Assembly (NCBI GenBank): GCA_000004695.1
Contig: CM000154.2
Location: 2,272,001-2,336,000, forward strand
Length of the DNA: 64,000 bases
Direction: 5' to 3'
Source of the DNA: Dictyostelium discoideum
Lineage: Eukaryota
Below the pieces are notes generated by a model. It was not told where the DNA came from, ran no database searches, and worked only from the letters and a program-made list of their open reading frames with translations. The stretch's first letter is position 1. Each line of letters opens with the position of its first letter. The translations under genes and the position numbers were made by a program. Below, in pieces: positions 43,722-64,000 of the stretch.

Positions 43722-43887
43722 TTAAACATGTAGTTCACTAGGAGTTGGACTACTATTATTTGAATTATTACTGGAATTATTTGAATCTTTTTTCCCTCTT
43801 TTGAATTTCTTTATATGTTTTCCATTCTCTAACTGTTCTTCTTCTTCTTCTGATGCACTTGATAATTCATTTTCATCATTTTGATTG

Positions 43888-43973
<86 letters not shown>

Positions 43974-44155
43974 GTTACTATTATTATTATTTAATTTTTT
44001 ATTTGGTGATTCATCGCAACCATTAATATCTTTGTCTATTGAAGTTGGTCCATTACTTTTATCAATTTTCTTTGAAACAACAGATTCATTTTTTTCATAA
44101 TCCAATTTTCTTTTTGGTGTTGTTTTCCTATTATCTCCAATCTCTTGATTATTGC

Positions 44156-44186
<31 letters not shown>

Positions 44187-47158
44187 TGAATTATTACTTT
44201 TACCATTAAAAACAGTTTCGTCTGGCTGTGATTGGTTTTCTTTTTTAATATCTTTGGGTTGTTTTTCTTTAACTTTTTCATCTATTTCTTCCATTTCTAA
44301 ATTCTCTTTCATTTCATCTTGTTTTTCTATTTTTTCATCTTCGTTTATTTTATCACTATTGTTTTTGTTGTTACTTTTATCTTGAACATCGTCATTATTT
44401 TCATTATTTTCATTATTACCATTATTATTAAGATGATTTTTATTTTCTATATCGCTATTATTATCATTATCATTGTCATTATCATTATTATCATTATCAT
44501 CATTATCACTATCATTATTTTCTTTCATTATTTCATCTTTTTTTTCATTTTTATCTATTATTTCATGTTTTTCAACAATATCATCACTTTCTACAGATTT
44601 ATTAATTTCATCATCTTCATCATCTTCGTCTTCATAATCTACAATCTTTATATGACTACTACCATTTCCATTATTAGTATTTTCATTATCCTTTTCTATA
44701 TTATCATCATTTTTCTCCATATTATTTTCATTATTTGTACAAATTTGTTTATTATTATTATTGTTATTATTATTATTATTAATTGAAATCGGAATTAATT
44801 CATCTTCATCATCAGAATCTTCAGAATCATCATCTCTATTAAAATAAGCTTCTTCTTCTTCCTCATCGATTTCTCTTTGAGTTCTTTGATAATTATGATT
44901 AATTTTATTATTACCAATGATAGGTTTGCTATCAATATCATTGCTACTGCTATCGTTATTATTACAAGATGTTTCTGGACTTTCAAATGAAGAATCCTTA
45001 ATTTGTTCATACTTTAAAATCAATTGTTTTAAAACGTCGGTATAGGTTACCGATTCAAACAATTCTCTATACCTTTCGACTAAATAAACAATTAAATCCC
45101 TAATGTTCTCTTTGTAGATGTATTGAAATAGTTCTATGATTGCTGAATTTAATAGATTATACCTAGAAATGTTTGATTTGAAAACTTCAATGATTGGTTC
45201 AAATAGATTCTCTTGAATGATATGTTGATTATATAGGTCATCTTTCATATTTACCATTGATCTAAAAAATCTAATTGATCCAAGTATTAAATATCTTTCA
45301 CTATTTCCACCACCACCACCACCACCCCCACTACCTGTAGGGTTCGTATACCTTAATATCTTTTTTGCAATACCTTCTTCAACTATAAAATGTTTAATAC
45401 GATAGCAATGATGTTTAATACAATAGATTACCAACTCCATTATATTATAGAGTACAAATGAATCTAAATTACTACTTGGATCACCTGGTATTGTAGGCTC
45501 TCCTTTATAAACTTCATTCAATGGTGATACTAATAAATCTATACCTTTATCATAAAATAATCTAAAGAAATCGCTTGACTAATAATTATTCAGAAAAAAA
45601 AAAAAAAAAAAAAAAAGTTTAATATTTAAAAATATATATGTAAATAAATAATAATTTGTTTGATTTTCTTTTTTTTTTTTTTTTTTGAAAATTACTTACA
45701 TCATAAGAATCAGCTTCCAATAAAGTTTTAATAATTTCAACAATTTGATTTTTAACACCAATATCTTTATCAGTTATGAATAAATTTATTAATTGAACCA
45801 AGAATTTACTATTTCCACTGGTTGGAGAACATAGATATGATCTTAAAATTTCTGGATCATGTAATAATGTCGATAATACAATCTCTGTACATGATACTCT
45901 GGTTTGTACATTTTCATCATCCAAGATTGCTGATAAAGTTTTAAATAATCCTAATGAAACTACAACTGTAAAAAATGTTGATTTACTTTGAATTTGTAAT
46001 CCTTTTGCTAAATTACATAAATCTTGAAGAAATAATATTAAATCTTTTCTTTCTTCTGAATTCTTTTCACTTTTTTGGATTTCTGAAAATCTAATTTTAA
46101 AAAAAAAAAAAAAATATATAATATATTTTTAGGTTTGGTATTAATAATATGAATCAATCAAATTTGAATTCTTCCTAATCTATCTATCTTTATCACTCCT
46201 CTCTCCATCTCTCTCTCTAGCTTTTTTTATATTTTAAAATAAATCCTTACAAATTTTCTAAAAAATCTGAATCATTTTGAATTTGTGAAACTATATCTAT
46301 ATTATTAAAATAAATTAATGAATTTAATGATGAGAAAGTGACATCATCCAATACTCTTGGTAAAACAACATCTTTTAGATATTGAATTCTAAATGTTTGA
46401 TGAATAGTTCCAATTAATGATTTTGATGGGAACTTTATAACTTGTTTAAAAACTACTTGTTGATTTAAAAATTCTCTATGTTTAATTCTATTATTTTCTG
46501 AAATTTCTGGGTCATCTAAAAATTAAATTTAATTAATTAAAAAAAAAAATAGTTAATAACAAAAAAAAAAAAAAAAAAGTTAATACAAAACCTTAAATAA
46601 AAATAAAAAAAAAAAAAATATTTACATTCTAATGCACCCATAACTCTTACTAAATAATCTTCTGATAAAATAACCTCTAAAATTGATGTATCATTGAATA
46701 AAACTGTAAAAAAAAAAAAAAAAAAGAAAGAAAAATGTTAGGTTTATTTTTTTTTTTTTTTTTCAAACTGTAGGTGTGGGTAAATGGTTTTTTTTTTTTT
46801 TTTTTTAATTTAAAATTATTATTTATAAAAAAAAAAAAAAATACATACTAAGGTTTTTAAAAATATTGAATATTTGAAACAAGTGAACTCCTCCTTCACC
46901 TGATTTTTCAATTTCATCAAATAAATCTAATAATGATCTTACTAAATCCTATTTTTTAAAAATAATAAAAAAAAAAAATGTTAGGGAATTGGTTGCATTG
47001 GGGTTTTTGGTGCAATTGTGAATATAAAAAAAAAAAAAATGTTTTTTTTTTGAATTTTGTTTATTTTAGGATGTGCAAAGTAAATTAAAAAAAAAAAAAA
47101 AAACCACCATGTTGTTAAGATTATGTGATTGGTTTGATTTGATTTTTTTTTTTTTTTT

Positions 47159-47653: not shown

Positions 47654-49010
47654 TATTTATGTTTTTATATAATATATTTATTATTTTTATATTTATAGTT
47701 TAGTTTTGTTTTTTTTTTTTTTGTTGTTGTTGTTGCTTTTGTTGTTGTTGTTATTGTTATTGTTGTGTTTTGTTTATTAATTTTGTGTGTAGGAAATTAT
47801 AATGATTTTTTAAATATATATATATTAATGACCATATATTTTTAAAAAAATATTATAATTATTTTTATTATTATTATTATTACTGTTTAACTACTATACA
47901 TAAAATATAACATATAAATACACAATAAATGATATTGTGCTATGGCGATTGGTTTGTAGGTGTTGATGTTGGTGTTGATATTAGTGTTGGTGTTGTTTTC
48001 TTATTGACTATTGTTATTTTTTATTATGATTTTTTATTTTTATTTTTTTTTTTTTTACTAATTTAACAAATTAACTTCTAAAATTTTTAAATTTTTAAAT
48101 TTTTTTTTTTTTTTTTTTTTTAATTTAAAATTATTAGTATTATTAATAAAATAATAATAATAATAAAAAAACAATCCCTTCTTTAAGTAGTTTGTGTTTG
48201 TGTGTGAGTGTGAATATGATGTTATTGTTGTTTAATTAATTATTATTTTAATTTTTGTTGTTTTGTGTGTCTGCACCCTTATTAATAAAAATAAAAATAA
48301 AAATAAAAATAAAAATAAAAATAAAAAAAAAAAAAATTTAAAATTTTTTTTTTTTTTTTTTTTTTGTTTTTTTTATTTTTTTTTATTTTTTTTTTTTATT
48401 TTTTTAAATTTTTTTTTTTTTTTTATTAAATATTTTATACTCATATATGGAAGTAAAATTTAAAACATCCACAATTGTGGTTTTGATAAAAACAAAATTT
48501 TAAAAAAAAAAAAAAAAAAATTAAAACAAAGAAATTTTCGTAAGAATCTGATAATCAGATCTATTTTTTATTTTTATTTTTTTTTTAAAAAATGATGGAA
48601 TTGAAGTTTTAACTTTATTTTATAAAAAAAATAAAATAATAATAAATAAAAAAAAAAAAAAATAAATAATATTAAATAATTAAATAATAGTCATAGTATA
48701 AAAAAAAAACTTCCAAAAAAAAAAAAAAAAAAATTTTTTTTTAAACATTTACTGGAAACTGATGGTCATATTCCAATGATTGCAATCACTCAAATATAAA
48801 CAATGTTAAGAAATTAATAATTAAATTTATGGAATTTAATCCTTTTATTCAACAACAGCAACAACAAATCCTACTACTACAACAACAACGATAGGATGAC
48901 AGCAGAAACCACAGCAACGAATTATTTATCAATTAATGAATAGATTTCCAAATTTTGTTTGAATATCAAAAATGAGAAGGAGCTATTTTCCAAAAAAAAA
49001 CATAAAAAGT

Positions 49011-49083
49011 GCCTGGATGGCTCAGTAGGCAGAGCGAGCGGCTGTTAACCGCTAGGTCCATGGTTCGATCCCATGTCTAGGCG
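49011..49083 (+). tRNA. tRNA-Asn (anticodon GTT)
   Basis: Cloverleaf by eye: acceptor gcctgga / tctaggc (one G-U pair), D-arm gctcagtaggcagagc, anticodon stem agcgg / ccgct with loop ctGTTaa, T-arm catggttcgatcccatg, discriminator g. No intron, no encoded CCA. Confidence 0.9.
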
Positions 49084-49161
49084 ATAATTTTTTGGTTTTT
49101 TTAAATTATATAGAAAAAGGATCTAACAAAAGAAAGAAACATATCAGTATCCGTTCAACAA

Positions 49162-49217
49162 AAAAAACCGCACCGCGATCAAGAGGATAAAAAAACCGCA
49201 CCGCGATCAAGAGGATA
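49162..49217 (+). repeat. 2 x 28-bp direct tandem repeat in the retrotransposon 5' UTR (A-module-like)
   Basis: aaaaaaccgcaccgcgatcaagaggata occurs twice in tandem. Confidence 0.8.
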
Positions 49218-49359
49218 CAAGATACACGTGAAAAGTAATTCATCCTTTTCTATCCTTAATCTCGGTCAATTTTAACCAATCTTTCAAAAAAAATCACCAA
49301 TCCACCACGATCTACAGATCTAATTTACCAAATCGCCGATTCAAAGGAATCCCATCGAG

Positions 49360-50253
49360 ATGAATTCCTACGCAGACGCGGCTAAAATGGCCAACCCCTC
49401 CACCCATATGGACGAGGCATCAGAGAACTTCATTAAGGAATTCTCCACAAAAACAGCAGAGATAAAGGAGACCTACCCCAAATTATCAATAGGCCTCAAA
49501 GACATCTCCAAATACTGCGAGACCATATTGAACATGACTGCTCTCTCAACCTACGAGAAAAACAACGGATTCTACCCAATTACACTCGAATTCCCCAAAA
49601 TGGATCTCATGGGGTTAGAAGAAATGAGAAAAACACTCTCAAACTACGATATCCCAATCGACAAGATATACATAGGCAAAGGAACTAGAAAAACGATCCA
49701 CCTGATGATTAAAAACGAACAATCTCTCCTAAATATCATTAGAGATAGAAGCAAATTGGGAACCTTCATCACCTCCAGTAGAGACTACCACGTCCTCACA
49801 GGAAGAGTAAGAATTCCAAGAGAAAAGGCAGGAATAGTGGATGCCCTCATCAAAACTGCCTTTGCAGAAGAAATACCCTATGCAATATACCATACTATAT
49901 ACTCCACCGACCACCTCCTAGTATTCGGTCTAATAGAATGCAAAATAGGCGATCAAATGAAATCTGGCCAACACAATACAGAAATCGCCAACTTTACCAT
50001 CAGAACGGCCACCAAAACCTACTCCTCACAAAAGAAAAATAAGAAAGTAGAGTCAAACAACACGGAAGAACCATTAGAAGANNNNNNNNNNNNNNNNNNN
50101 NNNNNNNNNNNNNNNNNNNNNNNNNNNNNNNNNNNNNNNNNNNNNNNNNNNNNNNNNNNNNNNNNNNNNNNNNNNNNNNNNATTCTACAAGTACCACATC
50201 AACTCAATAGCAAGAATATTGACTATAGCTTTCAACGACCTCCTCACAAATAA
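49360..50253 (+). CDS. Retrotransposon ORF1 (interrupted by an assembly gap)
   Basis: 297-codon ORF MNSYADAAKMANPSTHMDEASENFIKEF... containing a 99-N run (translated as X). GC-richer codons (CCC, CTC, ACC, GGC) unlike the flanking host genes. Confidence 0.6.
   Translation: MNSYADAAKMANPSTHMDEASENFIKEFSTKTAEIKETYPKLSIGLKDISKYCETILNMTALSTYEKNNGFYPITLEFPKMDLMGLEEMRKTLSNYDIPIDKIYIGKGTRKTIHLMIKNEQSLLNIIRDRSKLGTFITSSRDYHVLTGRVRIPREKAGIVDALIKTAFAEEIPYAIYHTIYSTDHLLVFGLIECKIGDQMKSGQHNTEIANFTIRTATKTYSSQKKNKKVESNNTEEPLEXXXXXXXXXXXXXXXXXXXXXXXXXXXXXXXXXXILQVPHQLNSKNIDYSFQRPPHK
50083..50181. other. Assembly gap (99 N) inside the retrotransposon
   Basis: Run of n characters in the sequence. Confidence 1.
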
Positions 50254-52270
50254 GAAAGAAATCCCCACAAAATTCAAAGAAGGAGTAATAACAACAATAT
50301 TCAAAAAAGGAGATGAACTAAACATTTCAAATAGAAGACCAATCACCCTTCTCAATACAGATTACAAAATTTTAAGCAAAATTCTCAACAGTAGATTATT
50401 AGATATCACCAGTAAAATTATCAACAAATTTCAAAACGGCTTTGTTCCAAACAGGTTCATCCAAGACAATATTCAGATCATGAAGGAAGTAATAGAAATA
50501 AGTAACAAAAGAAAGAACAATACACTCATTACCTTTTACGATTTTAACAAAGCATTCGATTCAATCAGCCACAAGAGTATCACAAGAACATTAGAGCATA
50601 TTGGTATCCCCCCAAAATTCACAGCGATCCTACTAAACCTACTCAAAGATACTAAAAACAAAATAAAGATCAACGACTTTTTAGTCAATGGAATAACAAT
50701 CAGAAGAGGAACAAAACAAGGAGACCCAATATCACCAACAATCTTTGCTCTAGTTTTAGAACCACTTCTAATAGATATCATCAATGATAATACAATCAAA
50801 GGCTTCACTCTACCAAATTCCAAATCATTAAAACTCACTGCATTTGCTGACGACATAGCAACATTTACAAACTCCACTGAAGAACTAATGAAAATTAATA
50901 CTAAAATCCAAAAGTACTGCTCAGCAACATCATCATCGTTAAACAAAGAGAAAACAGTAATGATAGCAATAGGAGATAAACCACACGATCTACCATTCCA
51001 AGAGAGTACAGTCCCAGAAAGATATCTTGGCCTCAATTTCACCAAAACAGGTTTAAATTCAAAATACAACACTTTAATCCAAGAAATGAAAAACAATCTA
51101 ATCAAATGGAAATCACAAGCAATAACGATGAAGGCAAAGATGACAATTCTCAAAACATACGTTCTATCCAAATTAACATACCATCAATACATGGATAATC
51201 TAAATGAAGAACAAATTGAGGAAATCAATAACATGACCAGATGGTTCTTATTCTCCTCAGTTAAGAATACATATACAGAAGAGAGAAAATACAAAACTAT
51301 GATGAAAATAGACAGAGCATATGCAGATTGGAAAGAAGGAGGCATAAAATTATGGGATATAGAACTAAGACATATAGCATTCAAAATCTGGTACATGAAC
51401 AGGCTACTCCATAACAACTACAACAACAACAACAATACCTTACAAGAATGGTACATGGAGCAATTAAGTAGAAAAAAAGCCCACACTTCAACCCTCAACG
51501 ATATGTGCAGACACTGGGGTGTATTCAGAGTCAAATTTTACCAAAACCATCCAAAGATAAATGAACTTCCAGACTGTATAAGAAACGACAATGACGAACC
51601 ACTAAAACTGAAAGAAATTTACGAACTCATGATCAAAGACAGACACCCAACACCAAGAAGAACAGAATGGCAGAAGTTATGGGCGGTGAGATACAACACA
51701 GCAATACACAAAGTATTCATAAACATCAACAGCATTTCTCACCAAAAAGGTAGAAACACCCTCTTCAGATTCTTCTCAAGATCACTTCCAGGTATCAACC
51801 ACGAAAGAGACACCAGATGCAAGATCTGTGGCCACCTATTCAGAGACCCTTATTCTCACCTCTTCACTCTATGCCAAGATATCCTAGATATTGAAAAAAC
51901 CATCATATCAACAGTTAACAAATTATCATTCATCAAAATCCACAGATGGTCAATGGATACCTTAGACATATCAAAATACAACAGAACTGAGAGAATCTTC
52001 CCCAATCTCATAGGAATAATAGCACACCAATTATGGAAGATAATCTGTCACAAATTGTTCAACACTGATGAAAGCAAACCAGAGCCAAAATTCGAACAAA
52101 AGGTCATAGAAACAGAATTACTAAATCTCATCGAAACTGAAAAATTCATCACACTAAAGAAAATCAAACACGACGAAGCAATACTAAAAAACACCAATCA
52201 AGATCTTCACAAATACAAATTCAACAAAGCCTGGCAAACCCCAGCAGCTCCGAACCCTCTTCCAATTTAA
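50219..52270 (+). CDS. Retrotransposon ORF2, reverse-transcriptase domain (the N-terminal endonuclease part is probably lost in or upstream of the gap)
   Basis: RT motifs RPITLLNTDYKILSKILNSRL, TFYDFNKAFDSISH, RRGTKQGDPISPTIFALVLEPL, LTAFADDIATF (YXDD-type FADD box). C-terminal Cys/His-rich CKICGHLFRDPYSHLFTLC. Overlaps ORF1 in a different frame. Confidence 0.75.
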   Translation: MTIAFNDLLTNKKEIPTKFKEGVITTIFKKGDELNISNRRPITLLNTDYKILSKILNSRLLDITSKIINKFQNGFVPNRFIQDNIQIMKEVIEISNKRKNNTLITFYDFNKAFDSISHKSITRTLEHIGIPPKFTAILLNLLKDTKNKIKINDFLVNGITIRRGTKQGDPISPTIFALVLEPLLIDIINDNTIKGFTLPNSKSLKLTAFADDIATFTNSTEELMKINTKIQKYCSATSSSLNKEKTVMIAIGDKPHDLPFQESTVPERYLGLNFTKTGLNSKYNTLIQEMKNNLIKWKSQAITMKAKMTILKTYVLSKLTYHQYMDNLNEEQIEEINNMTRWFLFSSVKNTYTEERKYKTMMKIDRAYADWKEGGIKLWDIELRHIAFKIWYMNRLLHNNYNNNNNTLQEWYMEQLSRKKAHTSTLNDMCRHWGVFRVKFYQNHPKINELPDCIRNDNDEPLKLKEIYELMIKDRHPTPRRTEWQKLWAVRYNTAIHKVFININSISHQKGRNTLFRFFSRSLPGINHERDTRCKICGHLFRDPYSHLFTLCQDILDIEKTIISTVNKLSFIKIHRWSMDTLDISKYNRTERIFPNLIGIIAHQLWKIICHKLFNTDESKPEPKFEQKVIETELLNLIETEKFITLKKIKHDEAILKNTNQDLHKYKFNKAWQTPAAPNPLPI

Positions 52271-52275
52271 GTAGT

Positions 52276-52340
<65 letters not shown>

Positions 52341-58779: not shown

Positions 58780-59579
58780 TTAATAAATCACTCCTTCTTT
58801 CTAAAATTTTTTTTTTTTTTTAATTTTTTTATTATTATTATTATTATTACTATAGATTTAATAAAACTAGAAAAGATTTTAATAGTTTAGTTGAATATAA
58901 TAATTTTTTAGAAATGGTAGAGGATTTAATATTTGATGCGATTGAAGGAGGAGATTTAGCAACAGCATCAGAATTAAAATTAAAAGAATATCAAAAAGCG
59001 AATCAAGCATCAATTGCAACTAATAAGAAAGCAAAAGAAGAAGAGGATACATTAATAGCATCAAGAATTGCAGATGAACAAAGATTAATTGCAGAGAAAA
59101 GGAATAAATTTTTAGCTGAAGATCAAAAAGAACAAAATTCAAAGAAATTAGAGAGTCAAAAAGCAATGGATGATTTAGCAAAAGGTAAAATTAGTGCAAA
59201 AGAATTAAAAGAAATCGATAAAAAGAAAGCTGCAGCCTCTGCTGCTAAATTGGCCGCTGCTGCAGCTGCCGCTTCAATGGTAAATGAACCATTACCACCA
59301 ATTCATGAAACTGATAATAAACAATCATTCACATACCAACCACAAAATAAACAACAGCAACAGCAACAACAACAAGGACCAACAAATCAACAATTACAAC
59401 AACAACAACAAGTACTTTTACAAATGCAATTTAATGAACCTCAGCCATTGGGTGAATTCAAATATGATGAAATGGCACTTAAAAATCTAATACCAACACC
59501 TCAACAATCCGATGTTGCTGGTTTTAAACAAAAATATATTAGACAAAGAGCTTTTGAAGAAGCTTTTCAATATTTATAA
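58339..59579 (+). CDS. mnat1: CDK-activating kinase assembly factor MAT1 (RING finger + MAT1 core). Three exons: 58339..58436, 58525..58680, 58856..59579
   Basis: MNIYDDDQCIKCNSGLYLNPNMRLLTSPCGHK / YCESCVQLAYMKDSVIQCLGCTAQIRKQSF... is collinear with the human MAT1 RING ([34 protein letters not shown]). Donor GTAAGT at 58437 (phase 2), acceptor tatttag. Donor GTAATT at 58681 (phase 2), acceptor actatag. Exon 3 EFNKTRKDFNSLVEYNNFLEMVEDLIFD matches the conserved SLREYNDFLEEVEEIVFN block. Confidence 0.85.
58687..58777. repeat. (ATA)n microsatellite of about 30 units in intron 2 of the MAT1 gene
   Basis: Uninterrupted repeat. Confidence 0.9.
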
Positions 59580-59737: not shown

Positions 59738-61097
59738 TTAAAGTTTTGAAGATAATAATGGGAAATCTTCAACAACAGTTCTACGAAGATCATTAATTTG
59801 ATGTTTAGATTGTGGAGATTTTTTATATTTTGATAATCTTTCAGCCAATTCTTTTAAGAGACCATCTTTATCTTGATATGGTGGTAAGAGTTGAAGATAT
59901 TCTTCTGGAGCTGGTTTTCTTCTTTGATTTTGTTGTTTTTGTGGTTTTTTATTTGAATTGGTTGAACGAGTAGTTCTCTTACCAACTACTTCTTCGAGTC
60001 TCTTTCTTTCGACGACTTTCATTTGTTCGAATAATTGAATGCTATTACTTAAGATTTCCATTGAACAAGATTCATAAAAGTTTAATTTACCCTCTTCAAA
60101 CATCTTTTCAGAGAACCAACCCATACGTTGGAGGAATTGATTCTTTTTGATACACATTTCTGGTTGAATTGAAAAGAGTGTTAAAATACCTGCCATGTAA
60201 CCCTCAATTAATGGATAGAAAAGATTTGCATAGAAACCACAAGCACCTTCACTCTTTACACCATAACAAGATGTGGTGCCACTAACCTCTTTACTAATGA
60301 TACCTCTTGAAACCATACGATTAATCTCTTTAAGAATAAATTCATCAGTATCATAACCTGGTTGATTAACAAATTCTTGTGATAAAACTTTTGCTAAAAA
60401 TCTAACTTCAGTAATTAAAGTTTCTTGATCAACTGAATTTAAATTTAATGTGGTGGTTGTTGTTGTTGAAACATTATTTGTATTAATAGTTGATTGTTGT
60501 ACTGCTGCTGCTGCTGGTTGTTCAATTGTTGATCTTGATTGTAAAATTGATAAAATTACTAAAGATACTAAACCATCCCAAAGGAATAAATGTAATAATT
60601 GATTTCTATAGAAATTTAAAACTAAAATATTCTTTCTATAGTTCTTATTGGTTACACCCAATTGAGCAGAACCAGGTTCATACATATTTCTACGTTTTGA
60701 AACTAAATTACTCAAGAGTTTAAGTGAATGATCAACTAAAGCATCGGAAGGACCCTCGAAAGCTACATCACCACCACGTGCGAAAATTTCTTCACGTATC
60801 CATTCAACCTTTGAAATTAACTCTTCACGATTAATACCACGACGGAATGATAAAAGAATGGTAGCAACAGCTGATGTAGTTGTAATAATAGCTGATTTAT
60901 TTAAATCTCTAACTACTTGATAACCAAGATCTTGAATTAATAAACGACGATCATCATCATTATTAAATGGATCAAAGTATGTACCAATTGAACGAGTATC
61001 TGGTTTACTAATTTGAGTTTCAAAATCACCTTCACTAATATTTGCACTATTTGTATTAACAACTGGTTTAATTATATTTGATTGTTCATCACTATTT

Positions 61098-61129
<32 letters not shown>

Positions 61130-62707
61130 TGTACTGGTATTATTACTATTTGTATTGTTATTGTTATTATTATTATTATTAATATTATATGATAATGGAT
61201 TTAAACGACGTAATGATGAAATTTCATTTGATTTATCTTCAGAATATTGTTTAATTGAAATTGGTGGAGTGAAAACAACATTAATTCTACCGAAATTCAT
61301 TTTTAAAACTTTTGAAGCACGTAATAAACCATTGAATGACTCTTTGGTTTTACTTTCACCCATCATTTCATTTGAGTAGAGTTCACCTTCTAATACCTTT
61401 TCATAGGAGATACCAATTGGTACGATATGGACATCTTGAACACGATTTTCAAAGAATGGTTGACAAACCATTGAAAGTAAACCCATCTTTGGATGTAATG
61501 ATTTACCAGTACGTGATCTTTTACCTTCGATAAAGAATTCCATTGGTTGATTATCAATGACCAATCTTTGAACATATTCGGAAAAGATAGCCCAATACAA
61601 TGAATCACCATGGAAAGTTCTACGAAGGAAGAAAGCACCAGCATTTCTAAAGAACCAACGAACGATGATGATTGATAAAAAGTCTTCACCTGCTGCAATA
61701 TGTGGTAATGGTAAATTGTATTCAAAGAAGATGTAAGAGATGATTAAGAAATCAATGTAAGAACGATGAGTTGGTATCAAGACCACTGGTGATTTCTTGA
61801 TGGCTTCACGAATGAGTTCAATACCTTTCTCGTCAACGTGGATTCCTTGATAGATTTTTCTCCAAACTTTCTTTAAGAACCAACCTAAAACTCTGACAAC
61901 TGAAACGTTGAGATTCGATTGCATTCTCTCCATGATTTGATTGGCACGCTTCTCAATCTCTGACACCAACACTCCCTCCTCACGGGAGACCTTCTCCATA
62001 GCTTGTTGAACACGTGGTGAATTCATAACCAATGAACGAATTTCAGTGGGTGCTCTTGGTGGTAATGGAGTTTGTGTTACATGACGATAGGATGTCGATG
62101 CCCAACTAATATCAGCAAATACCCATTGGAAGAAACCACTTTGGTTCACATCGGATTTGGTGATGATTGAGGTATTCAATAACTCGGTTGGTGGACGAAC
62201 TCCCTCCTCTTTCATAACGTATTTATGTAAACCAAAACAAAAGTAACAAAAGTATGATTGCCAATTGATCTCTGCTGCATCACAATTGTATTTAACTCTA
62301 TCTTCGCCATCCAATAGATCTTGATATACCTTTTCCAATGCTGTCACTGAAAATACCCATTCATGAGCTGTGAAATGTTTAAATGTATCACAAATTAATC
62401 TTGCTGCTCTTGTCATCTTTTTGAATCCTTCTGCTTTAGTCTTTGTATCTTCACTACCTGTCAATGTTGATAACACTTGTAACAATGCACTTGGTACACC
62501 ATATCTCATAAAGAAATGAGCTTCATACATAACTGTACTACTATGGAATGAAAATTGTGATCTTGCAATTGATTTCTTTGGTGTATGATTTCTCCAATAT
62601 TCTGTAACATAATGTGAAATTCTATTCCATGCAACTGGATTTCTATGACTAGTACCAATCTAGATTTAATTAAAAAAAAAAAAATTATTTAAATGTTAGA
62701 ATTATTA

Positions 62708-62738
<31 letters not shown>

Positions 62739-63669
62739 TTATTTTACTTACTTGATGAATTTTTAAAACATTTTGATTACCAATTGCAACAGCAGAAGCA
62801 ATTAAAGCATTAGCAACATGATCAACTGGTACGATATCAGCAACCATACGACCATCACCTTTCATAAATTGAACGAGACCAACACCACAATAGAGCATAA
62901 CGGCACCAATAGCAGCAACAGAATCAACCCAACCTGGTACTGGTTCTTTGAGTGAACCACCAACAATGGTTGGACGTAAGAAACACATTGGGATATCACC
63001 ACGTTTTAAGGCGAGGATACGTTCGGTGATAGCTTTGGTGAAAGTGTATGTATTTGGATAGGCACCCAAGAGATTTGGTGTTATACGCTCCAATGTCTGA
63101 ATATCTTGTTTCATAATTAAATCTACCATCTCCTCTGGATTGAAATCTAGTACTGGTAACTCTTCATCTAACCAACCTTCACGATTTGAATTAACGTATG
63201 CTGTTGAACAATGTACATATGCAACTACATTCTTTAAACGTTTAGATAGGTCCAACATATTCAATGACGCATAGAGATTCGATGAGATGGCCTTATCTAA
63301 ACGTTCACGGAAATCAATAGATGCTGCACAATGAATGATTACATTTACTTGGTCAACAACTGTTTGATAATCTTCACTTGATAACCCTAATCCCTCCTTA
63401 GACAAATCTCCACCAATTGCTACAACCTTGTTGTGAATATGGGCGTTGAATGCTGCCTCGCCCATTTTTGCCTTGCAAGTATCCCAAATACGTGATTGCA
63501 ATATGTCCTCTTCAAATCTCTCCTTTGCATTACCACGAATGATGATATAGATTTTTTCAATATCTGGTAAATCTCTTACCATCTTTTCTAATAATACTTT
63601 TCCAACAAATCCTGTTGCACCTGTAATTAATACTGTTTTACCAGCATAAAAATTTGCTAATACTACCAT
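59738..63669 (-). CDS. Bifunctional fatty acyl-CoA reductase / dihydroxyacetone-phosphate acyltransferase fusion protein (FAR + GNPAT-like) with a C-terminal PTS1 (SKL). Two exons: 62752..63669, 59738..62659
   Basis: Exon 1: Rossmann motif VLITGATGFVGKVLLEK and FAR-like NAD-binding domain. Donor GTAAGT at 62751 (phase 0), acceptor aatctag. Exon 2 continues with FAR C-terminal-like sequence, then acyltransferase motifs PTHRSYIDFLI (HxxxxD), FFLRRTF, FIEGKRSRTGK, PIGISYEKV. Protein ends ...DFPLLSSKL*. Total about 1279 aa. Confidence 0.85.
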
Positions 63670-64000
63670 TTTTTTTTTTTTTTTCTTTTTTCTGATTTCT
63701 TTTCAAAAAAGGTATAAAAAATAATTTATTTATTTATTTATTATTACACAAAAAAAAAAAAAAAAAGGAAAAATTTTACTAAAGAAAAAAAAATAACACA
63801 ACAATATATTAATTAATTGATGGTGATGATTTCTTTGTGTAAAATTTTTAATGTTAGTTGCAACGGAAAAAAAAAAAAAAAAAAAAATAAAAATAAAAAA
63901 AAAAATTCAGTCGAAGATTTTTTTTTTTTTTTTCAAAAATACTTAAATTTTATTTTTATTTTTAATTTTAATTTTTTTTTTTTTTTTTTGACTCTTAACT

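Follow-up and report, generated by a model that had tools for sequence, protein, structure and literature searches.

fatA of Dictyostelium discoideum, a single gene joining a fatty acyl-CoA reductase to an acyltransferase with a peroxisomal targeting signal

Ether-lipid synthesis draws on two parallel suppliers: a fatty acyl-CoA reductase (FAR) provides fatty alcohol and a dihydroxyacetone phosphate (DHAP) acyltransferase (DHAPAT) provides acyl-DHAP, both to the enzyme AGPS (PMC7375469, PMC13256971). In animals they come from separate genes, FAR1/FAR2 and GNPAT (DHAPAT). The first fusion of the two to be characterised was TtFARAT of Tetrahymena thermophila (Dittrich-Domergue et al. 2014, J Biol Chem 289:21984), cited in PMC7375469 and PMC13012113 as bifunctional and peroxisomal; in Dictyostelium discoideum, Kappelt et al. 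(2020; PMC7375469) named the fusion FARAT and its gene fatA. Here we analyse a gene in a 64,000-nucleotide (nt) stretch of the D. discoideum genome (GCA_000004695.1, contig CM000154.2, positions 2,272,001 to 2,336,000; hereafter the window) and conclude that it is fatA. An earlier note, made from the letters of this DNA, had proposed one gene fusing a FAR-type reductase to a GPAT/DHAPAT-type acyltransferase that bears a peroxisomal targeting signal of type 1 (PTS1). Gene model, Pfam matches, alignments and fold matches all agree with that proposal. The note had also called FAR and GNPAT the first two steps of the pathway; they are rather the parallel reactions described above.

The product of the gene, 1279 amino acids (aa) long, is identical residue for residue to XP_636393.1 / EAL62890.1 / UniRef100_Q54I12, the "hypothetical protein DDB_G0289081" of D. 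discoideum AX4, as found by exact-sequence look-up. Both published fatA cDNA primers match the window with 0 mismatches, at opposite ends of the coding sequence. The published description of FARAT is likewise of a 1279-aa protein with FAR first, then the acyltransferase, then two poly-asparagine blocks of 9 and 10 residues, and finally SKL (PMC7375469). Sequence, length, primer sites, the division into two exons and landmarks thus all agree: the gene is fatA (DDB_G0289081 / DDB0305750), encoding FARAT. It does not differ from the published D. discoideum FARAT, because the window holds that very gene, and another D. discoideum assembly contains the same sequence. The note's suggestion that a dictyostelid fusion enzyme of this kind had been reported was therefore correct.

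It follows that both the gene and its product are already known, as are the location of the protein and the phenotype of the knockout. GFP-FARAT fusions overlap fully with RFP-SKL peroxisomes and give a band at 170 kDa (PMC7375469), which is consistent with our computed mass of 145.5 kDa plus GFP. Knockout of fatA reduces the neutral ether lipid MDG to 13% and leaves triacylglycerol unchanged, a separate GPAT of the endoplasmic reticulum (ER) being responsible for triacylglycerol; phagocytosis is impaired as well, and re-expression rescues the knockout (PMC7375469). Import of FARAT into the peroxisome lumen and the need for it in ether-lipid synthesis were both established in the same study (PMC7375469).

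The gene lies on the minus strand, in two exons that span window positions 63669-59738, and its spliced product has one terminal stop and ends in SSKL (Table 1). The boundaries given in the earlier note for the gene and its phase-0 intron, together with the protein length and the final SKL, are exact to the base; the strand had been left unstated. The intron is far poorer in G+C than the exons, which stand at 32-37%, and reading through it was rejected because in-frame stops arise. Support for the intron comes from three lines of evidence, which we count as independent. When FARAT is aligned with the rice FAR (7eoz) or with Anolis FAR1 (P0106), the match continues unbroken over the junction of residues 306 and 307. 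In D. purpureum, whose orthologue (P0008) is 85% identical, an intron interrupts the gene at the same codon boundary and in the same phase, between KIFQ and IGTSH, even though the two introns differ in sequence and in length (74 versus 92 nt). Finally, primers placed on the start and stop codons have yielded fatA from cDNA (PMC7375469).

The position of the intron matters for how the fusion is to be read. The note had placed it at the join between the two enzymes; the phase-0 intron and the in-frame fusion are both real, but what the intron interrupts is the FAR module, at a point between NAD_binding_4 and Sterile, and not the FAR-acyltransferase junction. That junction sits within exon 2, which forms one open frame for the C-terminal domain of FAR, the linker and the whole acyltransferase. 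The fusion is therefore independent of the intron model. A stop and start within the intron, which the note had offered as a way of separating the two enzymes, could likewise not do so, because the intron lies within the FAR module.

The domains of the predicted protein support this picture. The Pfam models that the note had expected (NAD_binding_4, Sterile and Acyltransferase) were all found, with GPAT_C in addition. The N-terminal motif VLITGATGFVGK occupies aa 13-24 and includes GATGFVG, the GxxGxxG site for NADPH, at aa 17-23, while the catalytic signature of the reductase is intact as YTFTK (YxxxK) at aa 208-212. Block I of the acyltransferase, VVLIPTHRSYIDF, lies at aa 598-610 and contains HRSYID (aa 604-609); it is followed by block II, GAFFLRR (aa 647-653), block III, FIEGKRSRTGK (aa 682-692), and block IV, IVPIGISYE (aa 718-726). 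All the motifs quoted in the note are thus located in the product, and absence of the acyltransferase motifs is ruled out. FAR homology stops at about aa 461-464 and GPAT/PlsB homology starts at about aa 495-511, leaving a linker of some 35-50 aa. In short, a FAR module with its reductase signature, acyltransferase blocks I-IV with GPAT_C, FAR first on one polypeptide, and a PTS1 are all present in this protein.

Table 1. Features of fatA and its product in the window
Feature	Residues (aa)	Window positions	Strand	Details
fatA exon 1	1-306	62752-63669	minus	918 nt, 306 codons; ATG at 63669-63667; published forward cDNA primer matches 63645-63669 exactly
fatA intron (sole one)		62660-62751	minus	92 nt, GTAAGT...TAG, phase 0, 6.5% G+C; inside FAR module
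fatA exon 2	307-1279	59738-62659	minus	2922 nt including TAA at 59738-59740; 973 codons; published reverse cDNA primer matches 59738-59767 (plus strand) exactly
NAD_binding_4, FAR Rossmann/catalytic domain	15-288	62806-63627	minus	Pfam E=8.6e-64
Sterile, FAR C-terminal domain	360-457	62207-62500	minus	Pfam E=2.4e-17
FAR-acyltransferase linker, short	about 458-510	62048-62206	minus	conserved F-x-D-x-x-W-A; alignment of 26 fused homologues
Acyltransferase catalytic domain, PF01553	590-724	61406-61810	minus	Pfam E=1.1e-24; aligned to human GPAT1 8e4y
Two poly-asparagine blocks	N9 800-808, N10 817-826	61100-61180	minus	low-complexity insertion specific to Dictyostelium
GPAT_C, C-terminal helical region	870-1191	60005-60970	minus	Pfam E=5.2e-66
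SKL tripeptide (PTS1)	1277-1279	59741-59749	minus	end of conserved ...DFPLLSKL tail

The architecture is widely conserved. A homologue search with FARAT aa 1-797 as the query recovered more than 60 homologues, from many lineages, with identical domain architecture. Full-length proteins with all four domains occur in every dictyostelid sampled (75-89% identity), in Physarum and related sequences (about 55%) and in Planoprotostelium (47%), and the four-domain fusion is also found in ciliates (about 37-41%; Stentor and Paramecium 37-38%) and in many environmental sequences. Nearly all the full-length fused proteins keep GxxGxxG, YxxxK, HxSxxD and xEGxRS, and most have PTS1-like C termini (SKL, AKL, ARL, SRL or PKL). 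When 50 fused homologues were aligned, the H and D of block I, the E and R of block III and the P of block IV proved invariant and block II nearly so; the reductase signature has an invariant Y and a nearly invariant K. The FAR half is conserved as strongly as the acyltransferase half, with a mean column conservation of 0.5-0.67, and the F-x-D-x-x-W-A motif of the linker is present in all the fused homologues aligned (n=26). The poly-asparagine region, by comparison, has a gap fraction of 0.86 in other fused homologues.

Conservation at the C terminus extends beyond the targeting tripeptide. A tail of the form [D/E]-F-P-[LIVM]-[LIVM]-[S/A]-[K/R]-L (window 59741-59764, minus strand) recurs across Amoebozoa, and a large cluster of homologues that includes ciliates, but consists mostly of environmental sequences, ends in E-F-P-E-M-P-K-L. 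The pattern hints that this extended tail may provide context for receptor binding or for closure of the GPAT_C domain.

For structural comparison we used an AlphaFold model of a dictyostelid orthologue (P0014 in EukProt, 1177 aa) as a stand-in for the D. discoideum protein (mean pLDDT 80.5, pTM 0.69). Its N-terminal third matches the rice FAR DPW (7eoz) with a Foldseek TM-score of 0.73, and its C-terminal two-thirds match human GPAT1 (8e4y) with a TM-score of 0.85, normalised to the target. In sequence comparison, FARAT matches 7eoz at E=1.1e-45 and 8e4y at E=1.3e-61. The P0014 sequence falls short of its relatives by about 43 aa in the FAR module, so that HxSxxD falls at residue 561 and not at about 604, and its model drops to a pLDDT below 50 at residues 308-332, the site of the intron conserved in D. 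discoideum and D. purpureum. The shortfall is probably a mis-predicted splice in the P0014 gene model.

How does FARAT compare with the enzymes already described? TtFARAT, as cited, has the same arrangement of FAR followed by acyltransferase on one polypeptide, and the ciliate homologues that we recovered resemble FARAT in all four Pfam domains and in the catalytic motifs, and end in a PTS1-like -PKL. As reported in PMC13012113, TtFARAT is shorter, at 1140 aa; it also lacks the poly-asparagine insertion of Dictyostelium. The two proteins also differ in how they are known: the activities of TtFARAT, according to the citing papers, by expression in yeast, and Dictyostelium FARAT by knockout and localisation.

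Over aa 1-464 the FAR half of FARAT shares 32% identity with Anolis FAR1. The acyltransferase half carries blocks I-IV of the GPAT/DHAPAT type and, like animal GNPAT, is luminal through PTS1. Animal FAR1, however, has its anchor in the peroxisomal membrane and works on the cytosolic side (PMC13012113), a tail-anchored type to which FARAT does not belong: none of the 19-aa windows from aa 300 to 990 is hydrophobic and we found no hydrophobic tail after Sterile, which leads straight into the acyltransferase. The reductase of FARAT is inside the lumen and therefore needs a luminal supply of NADPH.

For aa ~495-1190 the closest solved structures are those of human mitochondrial GPAT1 (8e4y) and bacterial PlsB (9vuq), which differ from FARAT in their acceptor, glycerol-3-phosphate (G3P), and in their location, and which have neither a FAR module nor a PTS1. 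Bacterial FAR-acyltransferase fusions such as Myxococcus xanthus MXAN_1675, as cited in PMC13012113, have the same domain order as FARAT. Bacterial proteins that match NAD_binding_4 and Acyltransferase and are about 870-915 aa long also came up in our own search, among them one from Gemmatimonadota (P0122) with 31-32% identity in both halves. The bacterial fusions are unlike FARAT in being shorter, in having no recorded Pfam match to Sterile or GPAT_C, and in lacking a PTS1.

Taken together, these observations make it very probable that the fatA product is a soluble enzyme of 145.5 kDa that combines the two functions, resides in the peroxisome lumen and starts ether-lipid synthesis. In the mechanism that we propose, the PTS1 import machinery would recognise SKL and bring in the polypeptide as a whole. 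Inside, the FAR module, with its extended short-chain dehydrogenase fold, would use NADPH to reduce long-chain acyl-CoA to fatty alcohol, and the GPAT/DHAPAT module, through its HxxxxD dyad, would move an acyl group from acyl-CoA to the sn-1 position of DHAP. A separate AGPS/ADPS would then take both products and exchange the acyl chain for the alcohol, yielding alkyl-DHAP. Through the fusion itself the two feeder activities are made 1:1, imported together and kept in one place. The two activities are predicted on somewhat different grounds: that of FAR from its conserved catalytic residues, and DHAP acylation from motifs, with the support of a knockout that loses ether lipids and keeps triacylglycerol. 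In addition, a functional FAR domain has been reported for the Tetrahymena orthologue, as cited in PMC7375469.

Several points weigh against this interpretation. The literature that we found holds no separate enzymatic assay of either Dictyostelium FARAT domain. The fatA knockout removes both domains at once, and so the FAR activity of the Dictyostelium protein is one that we infer. The nearest solved acyltransferase is GPAT1, an enzyme that acts on G3P, and a preference for DHAP over G3P is not settled by sequence alone. Finally, the linker of the P0014 model has a pLDDT of about 53-65, a middling confidence that therefore does not establish a fixed geometry between the active sites.

This last point bears on the alternative that fares best, in which the fusion is a channelling device, as the note had suggested: FAR and acyltransferase, held in a fixed arrangement, would hand their products, fatty alcohol and acyl-DHAP, straight to an AGPS bound to them in a three-enzyme metabolon. 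The short linker, with its F-x-D-x-x-W-A motif kept in every fused homologue aligned, fits this idea, as does the persistence of the architecture across very distant lineages. Mammalian GNPAT and AGPS, moreover, are said to form a complex, which is offered in its favour. The whole-protein pTM of the P0014 model might be added, though neither that value nor the linker pLDDT is informative on channelling. On the other side, the two activities are parallel and not sequential, so that channelling would require the docking of AGPS; the linker is modelled at low-to-middling confidence; and animals cope with separate proteins, FAR even being on the opposite face of the peroxisomal membrane (PMC13012113). 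We regard channelling as possible but rather unlikely. A fuller version is a little less likely again: that the F-x-D-x-x-W-A junction both fixes the active sites and docks AGPS, making FARAT the core of a metabolon whose products never enter the bulk lumen, and that the split arrangement of animals is a derived loss of channelling.

Two further alternatives concern one half of the enzyme each. The acyltransferase might be a G3P acyltransferase of the GPAT1 kind, rather than a DHAP acyltransferase; its best match among solved structures is, after all, human mitochondrial GPAT1, and the Pfam models do not split GPAT from DHAPAT. This is hard to reconcile with a luminal peroxisomal enzyme whose loss depletes MDG and spares triacylglycerol, the latter being made by the ER GPAT (PMC7375469). 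The published phylogeny also groups the acyltransferase domains of FARAT with GNPAT (PMC13012113), and the Tetrahymena orthologue is reported, in a title cited in PMC7375469, to form both ether-lipid precursors. We consider a G3P acyltransferase very improbable. Equally improbable, in our judgement, is that the FAR half is dead or merely structural, with fatty alcohol coming from elsewhere. What speaks for this is the lack, in the literature that we found, of a separate assay for the FAR activity; what speaks against it is that GxxGxxG and YxxxK are intact and conserved in the 50 fused homologues, in a half as well conserved as its partner, and that the Tetrahymena FAR domain is reported to work (as cited in PMC7375469).

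That a FAR gene and a neighbouring acyltransferase gene were falsely joined through an invented intron is a reading to which we give practically no credence, even though the join was first read by eye and the Dictyostelium intron, extremely A+T-rich, resembles intergenic DNA: Sterile and the whole acyltransferase share one uninterrupted exon of 973 codons across the junction, the full coding sequence was amplified from cDNA (PMC7375469), the D. purpureum intron has the same position and phase, and the more than 60 homologues have the same architecture, so that a mis-joined pair is ruled out.

The distribution of such fusions has recently been surveyed. FARAT is reported to be the usual arrangement in Amoebozoa, Discoba, Filasterea and Ciliophora, and is held to be probably ancestral in eukaryotes and of myxobacterial origin, the split arrangement of animals being derived (2026 survey; PMC13012113). 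That survey states that Ciliophora are the only Diaphoretickes group with FARAT, and its main text does not mention oomycetes. Among our homologues are four oomycete fusions (P0053, P0061, P0067 and P0070) and one from a dinoflagellate (P0075), all full-length, with four Pfam domains and PTS1-like ends. The C termini of the fusions are -SKL in Aphanomyces euteiches, -AKL in Thraustotheca clavata, -SKM in Lagenidium giganteum, -AKM in [Pythium] brassicae and -ARI in Durusdinium trenchii. The oomycete and dinoflagellate proteins have in common an insertion of about 26 aa in the FAR-acyltransferase linker, and a quick neighbour-joining tree groups them in a single clade, the internal order of which tracks oomycete taxonomy. 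The distribution map and the gene-transfer scenario of PMC13012113 may need to be revisited.

The surroundings of fatA were also recorded. Downstream, and convergent with it, lies the last exon of MAT1, the CDK-activating kinase assembly factor, at 58914-59579 (plus strand). The two stop codons are only 158 nt apart, and the 3' ends of the two genes must therefore be very close or overlapping; their adjacency is kept in D. purpureum. The upstream, divergent neighbour is a 528-aa aldehyde dehydrogenase (Pfam Aldedh; L001:6674-8511), just past window position 64000. Such a neighbour is suggestive, since the reductase that fatA encodes goes by way of a fatty aldehyde, but D. purpureum has a Yippee-Mis18 gene in its place, and because the adjacency is not conserved there it may be a coincidence.

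Farther away in the window, a tRNA-Asn(GTT) gene occupies 49010-49084 (plus strand); about 275 nt downstream of it, and in the same orientation, lies the gene call of a non-LTR retrotransposon. The arrangement, at 49010-52290, suggests one of the tRNA-gene-targeted retroelements (TREs) known in Dictyostelium. A gene call running over the end of this locus has Exo_endo_phos and RVT_1; in the Pfam scan of the window, the open reading frame (ORF) at 50219-52270 matches RVT_1 (E=1e-36) and the ORF at 49360-50253 has no match. An ORF at 43722-45521 (minus strand) encodes the C-terminal domain of PP4R3, protein phosphatase 4 regulatory subunit 3 (E=1.1e-45), and belongs to an unrelated neighbouring gene. 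An Rfam scan of the window returned this tRNA only, and nothing bearing on fatA.

The chief value of this work is that the reference gene model was recovered exactly by unaided reading of raw sequence. As for the biology, the fusion puts both feeder reactions of ether-lipid synthesis within the peroxisome; the argument that this is the ancestral state has already been published (PMC13012113).

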